DNA of 64,000 nt from positions 37,689 through 101,688 of IMG/VR virus record IMGVR_UViG_3300032038_000024. The stretch is one strand, 5' to 3'. The position numbers and the translations under genes are program-made. The notes under the pieces are model-generated. The model had not been told where the DNA came from, ran no database searches, and worked only from the letters and a program-made list of their open reading frames with translations. This document shows positions 36,706 to 44,242 of the stretch, in pieces; within the stretch, counting starts at the first letter, position 1; every line of letters starts with the position of its first letter. Source of the DNA: a virus (taxonomy: Duplodnaviria > Heunggongvirae > Uroviricota > Caudoviricetes).

Positions 36706-37176
36706 TTATTTAAATTTTTCGTTAGCATATTCAACAAATTTCTTCATCCATTCTTCATCTATTGAAACTAATCTTTCAATTCTATATTGTCCGTAATCAC
36801 CAAGAGCTAAATAATCACCACAAAAAGGTCCATATTGAATATATGTTTCTGTTAATTTTTGTGACCAATTTGATATTTGTAATCCAAAATGATTTTTATC
36901 TATAAATACAAATTTATTATTTTTATCATAATCAGTCATTTCCCATTCTTCAGCATCAGATCTATGTTTATTTGAAATATTAGATACTTTTCCAATTCTA
37001 TAGTTTAATTTTGAATGATTAAATATATATAATTTATCACCTTTTTTTAATTTATCCCATAAAGTATAATCAAATTCTTTAATTTCTTTTTTATTTTCTT
37101 TAACAAAACTTTCAATTAAATTGTTTAATTGACTTAACTTTATTCCTTCATTAATATATGTTACTATGTTCTTCAT
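36706..37176 (-). CDS. hypothetical protein with the shared N-terminal motif (MKNIVTYINE)
   Basis: 156 aa. Confidence 0.45.
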   Translation of the reverse strand: MKNIVTYINEGIKLSQLNNLIESFVKENKKEIKEFDYTLWDKLKKGDKLYIFNHSKLNYRIGKVSNISNKHRSDAEEWEMTDYDKNNKFVFIDKNHFGLQISNWSQKLTETYIQYGPFCGDYLALGDYGQYRIERLVSIDEEWMKKFVEYANEKFK

Positions 37177-37182
37177 AAATAA

Positions 37183-37689
37183 TTAATATCTATTTGTAAC
37201 TATTATTGTGTCTTTATTATTCTTGAATTTTTCTTTTACTTTATCAAGACCTAATTGCATATCATCAATAACTTTTTCAGGTATATGTTCTTTACGACGA
37301 TCTTTACAAATTTCTTTAGGAGTATCAATAATGATTATTTGAACATTAGCATTAGCTTTCTTTAATTTATCATAATAATTTTGTACTCTTCCTGCTTTAA
37401 TATTTGTATTATCAATAACAAAATCTCTTCTATCTTTAATTGCTTTATCAATTCGTTCTAAACAAATTCTTGTAACTTCCTTTTCTTGTTCTGAATTACC
37501 AATTGCTTTATGGTTGTCATCCTTCATTATACCAAGTTCAACTCTAATTGAATCTTGGTTTATAATTTCGATATTCTTTGGAAGTTCTTCTTTAATATAT
37601 GTTGACTTACCTGAACCTGGAAGCCCGCACATAATCCAAACATTAAATGGATTTTGTTTTTCAAATATATAAGCTATTAATGATTTCAT
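37183..37689 (-). CDS. polynucleotide 5'-kinase (T4 Pnk kinase-domain homolog), with the shared N-terminal motif
   Basis: CGLPGSGKST (T4 GCPGSGKST), INQDSIR (INRDDYR), IDNTNIKAGR (SDTNLNPERR). N-terminus MKSLIAYIFE. Confidence 0.6.
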   Translation of the reverse strand: MKSLIAYIFEKQNPFNVWIMCGLPGSGKSTYIKEELPKNIEIINQDSIRVELGIMKDDNHKAIGNSEQEKEVTRICLERIDKAIKDRRDFVIDNTNIKAGRVQNYYDKLKKANANVQIIIIDTPKEICKDRRKEHIPEKVIDDMQLGLDKVKEKFKNNKDTIIVTNRY

Positions 37690-38891
37690 TTTTCTAATTC
37701 AAATCTTGTTCCTAAAGCTTGATTCATTGGTGCAAAAGATCCAGTCATTTTAAGACGACGTCCTTTATACATAATTACAATACCTTCTGCTGCATTATAT
37801 TTATCACCAAGAGCTTTAAGTCTATTTAATGATTTTTCTAATGTTGCCTTTGCTTTAACTGAATCTGATTTTTCAACTTCTTCAACAGTTGCTTCTAAAT
37901 CTGCTTTAAGAGATTTAATAATTGAATCTTTTGCACCTGAATTAACAAAGCCATCTAATAAATCAATTAATTCATTTCCAATTGCTAAGAAAAGATTATC
38001 CATAGGTTCCATAATCTTACCTACAACTTCTTTTCTTAAATCTTTATCAAGTAATGCAATTTCATCTTTATGTTCAGGATAACGTTTTTTCAATTCTGTT
38101 GCTTTAACTGATTTGTCATCATTACACATTCTATTGAATATGTCGTCATCATCTTTACACCAATCAGGAGCAAATTTCTTATATCTTACTTTTTTCCATT
38201 CTTCAATTGAAACATCAGGTTTTAAACCTTCATCTTCCCAAAGCTTAGATATTGCTTTTGTAAACTTTTCAGCAAATTTAATACCTTCTTCTGCTGATTT
38301 AATTACAAGATTAGGACGTGGCTTTGCAGCATCAATACCTTCTGCTGCTTTATATATATCATCAACATGTCCTTCAACATCTTCAACTTCTTTATATTTA
38401 CCATCAACTAATTCATATATTTTATAACCATGAAATGCTACTCTATCTGTTGCATAAGGCATAACATTTGTTTTACCAGCAATAATACATTCACAATTAA
38501 TTAATTTACGATGAGTTGAATCTGGATTAAAGAAATCTTTACCAAGTTTATTGAATATCTTAGTAATGATTTCGCCTGATTGTACGAATACTTTTTTCTG
38601 ATGCTCACGTTCACCCCATTTTTCTACCATGTCATCAATAGACATACCACCTTTTTCTGAATTTAAATTACCAATATTACGAACAAACACAACTTCTCCT
38701 TTGTCGTTCATTGTAGCCATAATATTAAATCCATCAAGTTTTTCTTTAAGGTTTTCAATTTTACCTTTGAATAATGAATCCACCAAATCAATTAAATCAT
38801 TGGCAGTGAAATCTGTATAATCAAATGGATGTGCCATGTGGCCTGCTTGACCACCTTCAAAAAGCATTATATATCTTTGTAAATCTAACAT
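37686..38891 (-). CDS. ATP-dependent RNA ligase (Rnl1-like)
   Basis: Nucleotidyltransferase motif I EKLDGFN (KxDG); helical C-terminal domain; adjacent to the Pnk kinase gene. Confidence 0.55.
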   Translation of the reverse strand: MLDLQRYIMLFEGGQAGHMAHPFDYTDFTANDLIDLVDSLFKGKIENLKEKLDGFNIMATMNDKGEVVFVRNIGNLNSEKGGMSIDDMVEKWGEREHQKKVFVQSGEIITKIFNKLGKDFFNPDSTHRKLINCECIIAGKTNVMPYATDRVAFHGYKIYELVDGKYKEVEDVEGHVDDIYKAAEGIDAAKPRPNLVIKSAEEGIKFAEKFTKAISKLWEDEGLKPDVSIEEWKKVRYKKFAPDWCKDDDDIFNRMCNDDKSVKATELKKRYPEHKDEIALLDKDLRKEVVGKIMEPMDNLFLAIGNELIDLLDGFVNSGAKDSIIKSLKADLEATVEEVEKSDSVKAKATLEKSLNRLKALGDKYNAAEGIVIMYKGRRLKMTGSFAPMNQALGTRFELEK

Positions 38892-38893
38892 AA

Positions 38894-39352
38894 TTAACTA
38901 ATTCTTGATTTAATTTCTGATAATTTAGTTTTTGGTGGAAAAGTTATTTTTGCTTTTTCTAATCTTTCATCAGTATGTTCGCTATATGTCTTTCCTTTAT
39001 TTAAATAATCGCTAAGTGTGTCTGCATCATTCATTAAGTCTCCATCATAAGGTTCTTCTTCTTTTGAAATACCATGTCCATTACCTCTACCTCCACCTAT
39101 AATAGTATTCAAATAAAATTTTTGTGCTGATGCATGACCTTGGTCATACCCTAATGTATACCAAGCGTAATTTCTAAATACAACGATATCTTTAGACTTA
39201 TCGTCAGGATAACATACTAATGAATATTTCATTTTAGGATCTAACCTATGAGCCCATCGGTCTTTAATTTTTATCCACCCAAAAGACCAACCTTTACAAT
39301 CAGAAAAAACAATTTTTTTACTTTCTGTTATATATTCATTAATATTCTTCAT
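38894..39352 (-). CDS. hypothetical protein with the shared N-terminal motif (MKNINEYITE)
   Basis: 152 aa. Confidence 0.45.
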   Translation of the reverse strand: MKNINEYITESKKIVFSDCKGWSFGWIKIKDRWAHRLDPKMKYSLVCYPDDKSKDIVVFRNYAWYTLGYDQGHASAQKFYLNTIIGGGRGNGHGISKEEEPYDGDLMNDADTLSDYLNKGKTYSEHTDERLEKAKITFPPKTKLSEIKSRIS

Positions 39353-42919: not shown

Positions 42920-43383
42920 TATTTATTTTCTTTCTTTTTATCTTCTTTAATTGGAATTGCAGGTATAGGAACAATATTCAATGCAGGAACATTTACTTGT
43001 ACACCCTTTATATCTTCCATATTCTTTGGTGGATTTGATTCCCCAAAATTTTCTTTATAATATTTATCTAAATCAATACTATCTTTTGAAATATATGGGA
43101 TTGGAACAATTGTTAAAAGAGGTACTTTAAGCTGTGCTGTCTTTCCATTAGCATCAGTAAATTTTATTTTACCATCAGATTCAACAATGTTTGGATGATC
43201 AAACTTAGGATATTCTTTAATTAAATCTTCAAGAAAATCTTTAGTAAATACTCCAGGTAATTGTTCTAATTTTTGAACATGATCATTCATTAATTCATCA
43301 ACAGTCATATCTGTTGCATCAACTACTCTTACAGTGTTTGGTAATATAAACTTACCAATTTTTTCTCTAAGTTTATTAAACAT
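42919..43383 (-). CDS. hypothetical protein
   Basis: 154 aa. Confidence 0.4.
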   Translation of the reverse strand: MFNKLREKIGKFILPNTVRVVDATDMTVDELMNDHVQKLEQLPGVFTKDFLEDLIKEYPKFDHPNIVESDGKIKFTDANGKTAQLKVPLLTIVPIPYISKDSIDLDKYYKENFGESNPPKNMEDIKGVQVNVPALNIVPIPAIPIKEDKKKENK

Positions 43384-43400
43384 ATTTAATTTAAATTTAT

Positions 43401-44045
43401 TTATTCATCCCAAGCTTTGATTACTTTAAGATTTTTTATATTCAAGTCACGAGCAGCAATTACATTCTTTTTATCATCATCAACAAATACCACTCTATCA
43501 TATTCTTTACAAAGTTTTCTAAGAACATTTGCTTTCTTTTCAGCATCATCCTTCCCAGGATAACTTCTTATATCATCATTAACTGCATGTGAAAATGTTT
43601 TCTTAAATGAATCTCCTAATTCTTTAAGAGCACCATCTTTATCTCTAAATTTTAAGAAATCTGTAATTGCCTTTTTAACTGTATCTTCACAAGAACGAGC
43701 AGTCAAAAAACAAAAATCATACCCAGCTTGAATATAGTCATCCATTATTTTCAAGTTCTTAATTAATGGTGTACCAGAAATAATAGAATTATATACTTTA
43801 ACTGGATTTCTAAAATCTCTATAATCAAACCATGATCTCTTATCTGGGTCTCCTGCATCAGGATCTTTTGCAAATTCATCAGTAGATAATGCTACTTCTT
43901 GTTTCCCAGGTTCTTTCTTATAAACTGATATTTGTGATGGATCTACTTTTAATATTGTATCATCAATATCAAATACAATTAATCCTTTAACAGAATTAGG
44001 AAGATCCTTTATCTTTTCATTTATATATACAATTAAAGATTTCAT
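43401..44045 (-). CDS. HAD-family phosphatase (Pnk 3'-phosphatase-domain-like), with the shared N-terminal motif
   Basis: HAD motif I VFDIDDTIL (T4 Pnk FDVDGTL), motif II FCFLTARS, motif IV VVFVDDDKKN. N-terminus MKSLIVYINE. Confidence 0.6.
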   Translation of the reverse strand: MKSLIVYINEKIKDLPNSVKGLIVFDIDDTILKVDPSQISVYKKEPGKQEVALSTDEFAKDPDAGDPDKRSWFDYRDFRNPVKVYNSIISGTPLIKNLKIMDDYIQAGYDFCFLTARSCEDTVKKAITDFLKFRDKDGALKELGDSFKKTFSHAVNDDIRSYPGKDDAEKKANVLRKLCKEYDRVVFVDDDKKNVIAARDLNIKNLKVIKAWDE

Positions 44046-44050
44046 ATTAT

Positions 44051-44242
44051 TTAATGTTTATTTGCAAAGTATGCTTTTAATGCATTTTCAGCTTTTTCTC
44101 TTGTTTCATATTTAGCTTTCCAATATCCTCTTTTAGGAGTATTTGTTCCTTTACCGGCATGTCCTTTGATTCTCCAATAGTCTCCTACTTTTACAATAAC
44201 GTCATGCAATTGTTCTGTTAAATATTTAGAAAAGTCTTTCAT
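44051..44242 (-). CDS. small basic protein (MKDFSKYLTE)
   Basis: 63 aa. Confidence 0.35.
   Translation of the reverse strand: MKDFSKYLTEQLHDVIVKVGDYWRIKGHAGKGTNTPKRGYWKAKYETREKAENALKAYFANKH

Follow-up and report, generated by a model that had tools for sequence, protein, structure and literature searches.

A T4-like capsid-targeting decapeptide as a probable cleavable leader on an island of unrelated proteins in a huge rumen myophage

Introduction

Why should a run of neighbouring phage genes with otherwise dissimilar products begin with the same ten residues? The question is raised by a 64,000-nucleotide stretch of IMG/VR virus record IMGVR_UViG_3300032038_000024 (positions 37,689 to 101,688), which we refer to as the window and which has ~28% GC. 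The window derives from a huge myophage, and between its positions 36706 and 44242 (the island) nine neighbouring minus-strand genes share the N-terminal pattern M-K-x-[ILF]-x-x-[YF]-[ILF]-x-E (the tag). The initial annotation likened this pattern to the capsid-targeting sequence (CTS) of the phage T4 internal proteins (IPs), quoted as MKTYQEFIAE for IPI-III. That sequence is carried by IPII and IPIII, but IPI begins with MKTFKEFTST. Mutagenesis of T4 IPIII has assigned positions 4 and 7 to targeting and positions 8 and 10 to processing, which is blocked by Asp10 (PMC9026906), and the T4 prohead protease gp21 cleaves after the Glu of I/L-x-E (PMC12991175). In the literature that we consulted, a CTS is described for T-even phages only, with analogies in P1, phiKZ and SPN3US, and we found no report on this huge-phage clade or on enzymes as cargo. 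Here, we argue that the shared peptide is probably a cleavable capsid-targeting leader of the T4 type.

Results

A shared decapeptide has the constrained positions of the T4 targeting sequence

The nine N-termini listed in the initial annotation are all present at their minus-strand starts, as are three distant copies: MQDIKNFILE at 29970, MISLKDYIINE at 55843, in which the Glu lies one residue later, and MKDIKEYIIESNA, which reads from position 39 (Table 1). Together, the nine island genes and these three others give the consensus M-K-[SNT]-[LI]-x-[EQ]-Y-I-x-E. Within the island, the tag is found in 11 of 12 genes if a degenerate leader on a ligase-like protein and a C-terminal copy on a nucleotidyltransferase are counted, and the only gene without it encodes the 154-residue DUF2589 protein. 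About 13 of the 72 genes in the 64 kb are tagged. Two further candidates were left uncounted: the 737-residue protein encoded at 50980-53193, because its N-terminus (MKSFPSTLNE) is not conserved in the homolog from locus L064, and the gene at 39-1199 (MKKITEGKSK).

A profile scan, which had been proposed as a check, separates the tags from other sequences. A position-specific scoring matrix (PSSM) derived from the nine tags, and so self-trained, gave those nine N-termini at least 16 bits, whereas the best of 19,603 internal positions in window proteins scored 13.0. We also used a generic pattern that constrains only positions 4, 7, 8 and 10 after the start (^M..[ILFMVYW]..[YFW][ILVFM].E), which matched 9 of the 239 window open reading frames (ORFs) of at least 30 residues, against ~0.3 expected from its internal rate of 0.0013. 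When the survey was widened to 382 distinct genes from 31 AT-rich loci (30 related loci and the window), 91 of the 382 matched, or 74 of 365 after removal of the genes that had seeded the search, compared with 0.17% of internal positions.

The same 382 genes were used for a leave-one-out count of the residues at each constrained position. Position 4 was Leu in 48 genes, Ile in 33 and Phe in 6 (87 of 89), position 7 was Tyr in 75 and Phe in 12 (87 of 95), position 8 was Ile in 76 and Leu in 8 (Ile, Leu or Phe in 87 of 89), and position 10 was Glu in 87 of 104 and Asp once. These are the positions mapped in T4 IPIII, and the proposed likeness to the CTS therefore stands. The helical hydrophobic moments of the tags (0.27-0.59) are likewise similar to that of the T4 CTS (0.42). 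In a control on T4 itself, the generic pattern selected exactly ipII, ipIII and gp61.1 among 802 ORFs, and the window PSSM ranked ipI and the gp21-cleaved gp24 just after these three.

T4 gp61.1 (NC_000866, 18966-19130, minus strand) is a protein of 54 residues that begins with MKTFKEFIKE and scores above ipII and ipIII with the window PSSM. As judged from this N-terminus, it may be an unrecognised packaged T4 protein, and a T4 protein of unknown function with a perfect motif offers a concrete lead.

Table 1. Tagged genes, capsid genes and associated features of the window.
Feature	Position	Strand	Remarks
63-residue tagged protein, MKDFSKYLTE	44051..44242	-	Predicted mature part 53 residues, basic, isoelectric point (pI) 9.9
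214-residue HAD-family hydrolase, tag MKSLIVYINE	43401..44045	-	Pfam Hydrolase, 29.4 bits (cut-off 26.4)
154-residue protein without tag	42919..43383	-	Weak DUF2589 match
382-residue tagged protein, MKHFNEYFFE	41771..42919	-	Clade-restricted family, 131 homologs
262-residue HIGH-motif, cytidylyltransferase-like nucleotidyltransferase	40980..41768	-	N-terminus untagged
C-terminal tag copy of the nucleotidyltransferase, NDLKTYITE	41001..41027	-	After I-K-E; six residues, then stop codon
339-residue tagged protein, MISLNEYSQE	39977..40996	-	Second site L-T-E at residues 19-21, ahead of conserved core
97-residue tagged protein, MKGIKQFISE	39681..39974	-	Acidic
106-residue tagged protein, MKSINEYINE	39364..39684	-
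152-residue tagged protein, MKNINEYITE	38894..39352	-
401-residue ATP-dependent ligase-like nucleotidyltransferase, RNA-ligase family	37686..38891	-	12-residue degenerate leader MLDLQRYIMLFE, then GGQAGHMAHP
168-residue P-loop kinase, tag MKSLIAYIFE	37183..37689	-	Pfam AAA_33, E=7.6e-21
156-residue tagged protein, MKNIVTYINE	36706..37176	-
137-residue nucleoside diphosphate kinase (NDK), 11-residue leader MISLKDYIINE	55430..55843	-	Pfam NDK, E=2.7e-21
167-residue tagged protein, MQDIKNFILE	29467..29970	-	Virion-gene region
Further tagged gene start, MKDIKEYIIESNA...	1..39	-	Continues past window edge
562-residue prohead protease	16172..17860	-	N-terminal S77/gp21 domain, charged linker, C-terminal coiled-coil and repeat domain
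36-nt tandem repeat in protease gene, 5.7 copies	16646..16850	-	Encodes part of the W[VI]xEEFAPE[VI]QN units
gp23-type major capsid protein	14297..16066	-	Pfam Gp23, E=1e-27; conserved [IV]-H-E sites, residues 36-41
Tail sheath	10901-14044

The leaders end at sites of the gp21 type

Homologs of the ligase-like protein reveal where the leader ends. They carry 53 distinct leaders of 12, 15, 17-20, 22, 23 or 26 residues, each of which starts with a tag, and in 119 of 119 homologs [LIV]-x-E stands directly before an invariant GGxxGHMxHP. The window protein has the short form, with MLDLQRYIMLFE immediately ahead of GG, and the ortholog from cyanophage S-PM2 has no leader and begins at the predicted mature N-terminus. 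In the family of the 382-residue protein (alignment A1, 41 members), Glu10 is the only invariant column within the first 50. The shortest leader there has 6 residues (MKHLFE) and the longest 16 (MISLKDYTFEKMFINE), and [LIVF]-x-E always precedes the conserved core. Glu10 is also invariant in the family of the 339-residue protein (alignment A2), in which a second conserved [LIV]-x-E immediately precedes the SxKYYTVKQ core; one member (P0245) has a longer leader that ends in V-N-E. As read from these alignments, the conserved leader ends follow the cleavage rule of the T4 gp21 protease.

Some relatives carry doubled leaders, such as MKSLNKYIIE-NKYFQQSFNE-SQ..., MKSILTYIKE-SLNIFE-KQNPFN (on a kinase) and IMTLKDYIVE...MKSLNNYINE; the loci are L069 7970-8293, L010 6293-6613, L025 3365-3889 and P0255. 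This arrangement suggests either redundant cleavage sites or duplication of the tag by recombination.

A gp21-type protease had been reported from the window, and domain searches agree. The N-terminal domain matches Peptidase_S77 (PF03420) with 44.8 bits against a cut-off of 27, the PHROG family of head maturation proteases is matched with E=2.3e-44, and the sequence is 27% identical to T4 gp21. The catalytic pair is kept, with His75 (GELEHP) and Ser129 (ISSRG) aligned to H85 and S140 of T4. The C-terminal 400 residues consist of an acidic/basic low-complexity linker, a coiled coil and about nine 12-residue units of the form W[VI]xEEFAPE[VI]QN, each with an aromatic-[IV]-x-E site that resembles the tag. 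We infer that the protease is fused to a scaffold, which it would shred, and that this scaffold is a candidate docking partner of the tag. The N-terminus of the protease has V-Y-E at residues 8-10, recalling LIE-9 of T4 gp21.

The nearest records to the major capsid protein are those of an uncultured 462-kb phage (LR756500, 38% identity), the Tenacibaculum phages pT24 and PTm1, Sphingomonas phage PAU and the Lak phages. Identical capsid genes are present on metagenome contigs, and homologs of 96-98% identity occur on contigs of up to 474 kb.

Invariant [LIV]-x-E junctions show selection on a cleavage site and not on packaging itself, and the leader could therefore be a propeptide that the phage protease removes in the cytoplasm, keeping proteins inactive or timing their activation with no packing into capsids. 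Several of the cargo enzymes could harm the phage if they were active early, and T4 gp21 expressed alone can act on a cytoplasmic host protein (PMC12991175). We nevertheless regard this explanation as improbable. Cleavage alone does not explain why positions 4 and 7, the targeting determinants in T4, are conserved as well. Moreover, the ten-residue tags of the kinase, the HAD protein and NDK lie well outside the catalytic domains, and inhibition of these enzymes by the leader is therefore not obvious. Finally, it is established for T4 that prohead proteases of this family are assembled into proheads and activated there.

The tagged proteins include several predicted enzymes

Three of the proteins with capsid-type leaders would be candidates for an RNA repair set of the Pnkp/Rnl type. 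The initial annotation named two of them as a tagged Pnk kinase and a tagged HAD phosphatase. Both tags are present, and the kinase matches residues 6-115 of T4 PseT, which form the kinase domain of Pnkp (25% identity, E=6e-5). The second protein does belong to the HAD family and its catalytic motif FDIDDT begins at about residue 25, but its similarity to the phosphatase of PseT (T4 Pnkp) is not significant; phosphatase activity may be proposed by analogy with the DxDxT phosphatase domain of that enzyme. The third candidate is the ligase-like protein, in whose family K51-x-D53-G54 is invariant (alignment A3). PF09414 (RNA_ligase) matches 5 of 14 members of this family, the window protein not among them, and relatives fall in PHROG 455 and DUF6267. 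The nucleotidyltransferase scores 20.1 bits with Pfam CTP_transf_like, slightly under the cut-off of 21, and its relatives belong to a PHROG cytidyltransferase family.

Orthologs of these and other cargo proteins are tagged as well. HAD orthologs of 68-88% identity carry the tag in L010, L069, L039, L045 and L026, further tagged HAD proteins at 27% identity are found on phage contigs of 32-34% GC, and L005 (51% GC) has a tagged gene that its motif alone marks as HAD-like. NDK has an ortholog in L064 with 50% identity and the canonical start MKNLVQYIQE. All five orthologs of the 63-residue protein (L010, L069, L045, L013 and L064) are tagged. Among the cargo, only this small protein is like the basic internal proteins of T4; most of the cargo has a mass of 10-44 kDa and a pI of 4.5-7.9, and no protein other than that of 63 residues is strongly basic.

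The remaining cargo is less readily assigned. The 156-, 152-, 106- and 63-residue proteins have no PHROGs or Pfam family, and PDB sequence searches with the 401-, 339- and 382-residue proteins returned no match. The family of the 382-residue protein has invariant residues D155, E165 and K167 (D155...E165-x-K167). Its AlphaFold2 (AF2) model has a pLDDT of 85 and yielded no Foldseek match in the PDB at E<=0.001, so that a PD-(D/E)xK nuclease, to which weak similarity to restriction-enzyme folds and weak top matches to lambda exonuclease and Rai1/DXO would point, is retained as a hint only. Such a nuclease would be a notable cargo if the protein is packaged. An initial hint that the 339-residue protein is a CPDase received no support from a fold search. 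Relatives of the 97-residue protein have tandem double tags or are fused behind a nucleotidyltransferase. In L039, a domain of the 106-residue type is joined by an internal MKTINEYINE to a preceding domain with a KVDG motif.

The 156-residue protein has a second tag-like sequence, MKKFVEYANE, 13 residues from its C-terminus, which is the best internal PSSM match in the window and may be what is left of a downstream gene that has been lost. A 2296-residue protein encoded at 19116-26006, between the virion genes and the protease, starts with MDLYNDNITE (Tyr at position 4, I-T-E at 8-10). Its only match is to a PHROG of unknown function, and it may be located inside the head as a very large protein whose start can be cleaved off.

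Tags at C-termini and between domains of the nucleotidyltransferase family

The nucleotidyltransferase family is the one family without an N-terminal tag, and it is here that C-terminal or internal tags occur. Its copy in the window, NDLKTYITE, is the second-best internal PSSM match. Orthologs have C-terminal tags too: ...IKEHK-MISLKEYITE-SIIKQ in L010, ...VKEG-LISLKNYILE-SLK in L069 and ...VKESRIR-MKSLKDYIME-NYIM in P0259, each followed by the stop codon. In other orthologs, surveyed as representatives clustered at 50% identity, an internal in-frame tag leads into a member of the 97-residue family, the ligase, a member of the 382-residue family or an unknown domain. The signal in this family is thus not strictly N-terminal, as that of a T4-type CTS would be.

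Fusions of the nucleotidyltransferase and the ligase, with either one first, recur among huge phages and T4-like cyanophages (PHROG 455, DUF6267), for example in P0058, P0083, P0260, P0261 and P0231 and at L104 2992-4767 (S-PM2d138). As far as gene structure can tell, this recurrence points to a conserved functional pair.

The ligase, kinase, HAD hydrolase and nucleotidyltransferase, which are sometimes fused, could share one pathway, the tag seems able to act at both protein ends, and the gene for an SPFH protein lies close by (30950-33049). A docking helix for some other phage assembly would account for these features, and its likeness to the T4 CTS would then be convergent; the assembly might be a cytoplasmic complex of several RNA-repair enzymes, a platform on a membrane or of the SPFH type, or an unknown compartment. 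We give this possibility little credence, however. A permanent helix needs no invariant protease-type site at the junction with the mature domain, and the tagged set is heterogeneous, with NDK, a basic protein of 63 residues and many unknowns. In T4, the motif selects proteins that are proven to be targeted to the capsid, and tag clusters occur on huge-phage contigs with a homolog of the S77 protease and on T4-like contigs.

The tag occurs in other phages and is selected as protein

A degenerate DNA version of the tag found 82 loci in IMG/VR, with matches mostly at ORF starts, and many contigs of AT-rich huge phages have 4-11 tags within ~12 kb. Four of the tag-cluster contigs also carry a homolog of the protease. 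Gene order is mostly common to the window and L010, each of which has extra or missing genes, recalling the variable IP loci of T-even phages. At the nucleotide level, megablast of the island against 50,697 phage records gave no match. LR756500 has the variant MKFLKSYEEFLNE, in which KSYEEFLNE resembles KTYQEFIAE of T4, and its ligase again has I-L-E directly before GG. Tag clusters and tagged ligases are also found on T4-like contigs of 36-51% GC that encode a DnaB-like (T4 gp41-type) helicase, a UvsX-like recombinase and a DNA polymerase, as well as in phage C48C1 (OQ984149, Kyanoviridae), whose ligase begins with MMLDFKNFITE ahead of QKNTH. A tagged MKKFNEYINE family maps to gene PSSM2_123 of cyanophage P-SSM2, where cultured cyanophages have no tag.

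In 596 Gb of prokaryote genomes, the tag pattern had 79 matches, mostly internal or single, and loci with several tags were confined to contigs that resemble mis-binned phage. Those in metagenome-assembled genomes carry 2-7 tags and include L130 (ONIZ01000001.1, 410,106 bp, "Firmicutes bacterium RUG343") and L114, L129 and L163 ("Clostridia bacterium RGIG2387"). About 25 of the prokaryote matches are to one Nitrosopumilus protein of ~165 residues, with MKKFNEYI[LIV]ETK at internal residue 112 (L107, L108, L113 and ~22 more); this motif, which makes up about a third of the prokaryote matches, is probably coincidental.

The annotation had argued for selection at the protein level from differing codons beneath the same residues. 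Indeed, synonymous codons vary and the upstream DNA is unrelated between genes, with a mean pairwise nucleotide identity of 0.65 within the tag against 0.39 and 0.35 in the 30 nt on either side. Inside the tag, third codon positions have an identity of 0.62, level with positions 1 and 2. All-against-all BLASTP of the island proteins without their first 14 residues detected no significant mutual similarity, and the island is therefore not a paralog family. The tag is followed by differing families (AAA_33, HAD, NDK and the RNA-ligase family), and the Pfam domains of the kinase, HAD protein and NDK start at residues 17, 22 and 19, each beyond it. Orthologs in related contigs retain the tag despite divergence of the remaining protein, and the motif is preserved in phages of 23% to 51% GC. 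These comparisons indicate that the tag is an add-on to unrelated folds and that selection acts on the protein.

The window's helicase, MazG, dNMP kinase, two lysozymes, amidase, sheath and major capsid protein lack the tag. The scenario that was to refute the capsid reading, a motif equally frequent genome-wide through an initiation effect, is contradicted by its absence from recognisable replication, lysis and tail genes and by the existence of C-terminal and internal copies. The genome has ~28% GC, and genes with high expression often have Lys (AAA) as their second codon and A/T-rich codons near the start; in addition, third-position identity within the tag is high, and fusions suggest recombination at its boundaries. 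These features would fit an mRNA or translation-initiation signal or a short recombination cassette, but we consider either highly implausible, given unrelated upstream regions, synonymous codons that vary while the residue class (I/L/F, Y/F) is kept, a restriction to ~13 of 72 genes, and full-consensus in-frame copies at C-termini and between domains, which together with conservation across the whole GC range exclude a translation-start effect.

Discussion

All three rival explanations are weaker than that of a capsid-targeting leader, from which we infer packaging, docking, cleavage, ejection and a role in the host. Cargo would be made with a leader of ~10-26 residues, of which the first ten would form a helix with a hydrophobic moment like that of the T4 CTS. 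During prohead assembly, this leader would dock the cargo on the internal core, probably on the coiled-coil and repeat domain fused to the protease. The gp23-type shell would then close and the protease would cut after the Glu of [LIV]-x-E, freeing the mature protein inside the head while the leader escapes. The nucleotidyltransferase would rely on a tag towards its C-terminus or on a tagged partner to which it is fused in frame, and would be processed like a small polyprotein. Mature proteins would be ejected into the host along with the DNA: an RNA-ligase-like enzyme, a Pnk-like kinase, a HAD hydrolase, the HIGH-motif nucleotidyltransferase, NDK, the small basic protein and several unknowns. 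It is plausible that much of this cargo makes up a kit of RNA-end-healing and nucleotide enzymes that works as soon as infection begins.

The closest known system is the T4 CTS itself. Both are leaders of about ten residues on unrelated proteins, with a hydrophobic residue at position 4, an aromatic one at 7, Ile or Leu at 8 and Glu at 10, and in both a gp21-type S77 protease and a gp23-type capsid are encoded in the same genome. Clustered genes whose content varies between relatives are a further likeness to T-even internal-protein loci. The systems differ in cargo number, with three IPs plus Alt in T4 compared with at least 14 tagged genes here, and in the nature of the cargo, which consists of small basic proteins in T4 and mostly of recognisable enzymes here. 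In addition, the leaders described here vary in length and can be doubled, and the tag can be C-terminal or internal. Our phage is a huge rumen phage, and its major capsid protein aligns with T4 gp23 with only 21% identity. The best explanation is a T4-type leader system that has been extended in three ways: in cargo number, in the use of enzymes as cargo and in architecture (variable or doubled leaders, C-terminal or internal tags and polyprotein-like fusions).

Other phages load proteins by related means. In phiKZ-like giant phages, many head-internal proteins are cleaved after Glu by a gp21-related prohead protease, and their propeptides are thought to target the prohead (PMC5694885; PMC9026906). 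The ejection and inner-body proteins of phiKZ, 201phi2-1 and SPN3US share this removal of a propeptide after Glu, but the propeptides are mostly longer than 100 residues and have no short common motif and few determinants beyond the Glu (PMC5694885; PMC9026906), whereas the decapeptide leader described here is short, common to the whole set and like that of T4, and it has [LIV]-x-E sites. In phage P1, the 30-residue N-terminal signal of DarB is enough to bring this large anti-restriction enzyme, or a reporter, into the capsid (PMC9024508). That signal is unrelated in sequence and is described for a single protein, not as a family-wide tag.

Two other comparisons concern the cargo and the principle of loading. 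T4 Pnkp (PseT) and Rnl1 repair tRNA cut by the anticodon nuclease PrrC, and by sequence resemblance the present set would share with them a kinase-like domain, a DxDxT HAD protein and an ATP-dependent ligase-like enzyme. Kinase and phosphatase form one polypeptide in T4 Pnkp, while here they are separate genes with capsid-type leaders; to our knowledge, the T4 enzymes are made after infection and are not packaged. Encapsulin cargo-loading peptides are short, stand at the N- or C-terminus or act by fusion, and direct enzymes into a shell of the HK97 fold. They are an analogy only, with unrelated sequences, no removal by protease and a shell that is not a virion.

Several observations weigh against capsid targeting. 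Most of the cargo is neither basic nor DNA-binding, unlike the T4 internal proteins, and so falls outside their small, highly basic, DNA-associated class. We know of no earlier case of a capsid that takes up enzymes of the housekeeping type, such as NDK. Some leaders in the 382-residue family have only 6 residues and lack position 7; such proteins may be cleaved but poorly targeted. Overall, C-terminal tags are not enriched (10 observed, 8.5 expected), and the nucleotidyltransferase family is the only one that has them. In the mature parts, [LI]-x-E shows no depletion (observed/expected 1.05, compared with 0.99 for untagged genes, an uninformative test), so that the protease would need to leave such sites uncut where they are folded, as is the case for gp21. 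Among cultured relatives, we found none with both tags and a published virion proteome.

Injected proteins act before phage genes are expressed, which makes them prime candidates for counter-defence, but their identification is difficult where no virion proteome is at hand. If the tag works as it does in T4, it allows injected-protein candidates to be listed from sequence for uncultured huge phages and many T4-like phages, and the packaged cargo would be unexpected in consisting of enzymes instead of small DNA-binding proteins. An anti-defence role for this cargo is our working hypothesis. More tentatively, and with somewhat less than even confidence, we suggest that the tag is a position-independent, protease-removable zip code with which huge rumen phages and many T4-like phages preload their capsids with a complete kit for RNA-end healing and sealing together with nucleotide enzymes, partly as polyproteins, to neutralise defences that target RNA or nucleotides before phage gene expression. 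In that case, a genome sequence would be enough to read off the injected proteome of any phage in the superfamily. Because the tag seems functional at either end and in fusions, it is also a possible tool for loading foreign proteins into the capsids of phages other than T4.

Neighbouring genes

ARAGORN detected no tRNA genes within the 64 kb. The region at 47415-57984 encodes two phage lysozymes (48056-48793 and 53844-54521), an Amidase_3 protein (54582-55241) and a dNMP kinase (49841-50899). A BspA-type leucine-rich-repeat protein is encoded at 55921-57984, and the SPFH protein mentioned above is of the SPFH/Band-7 type.

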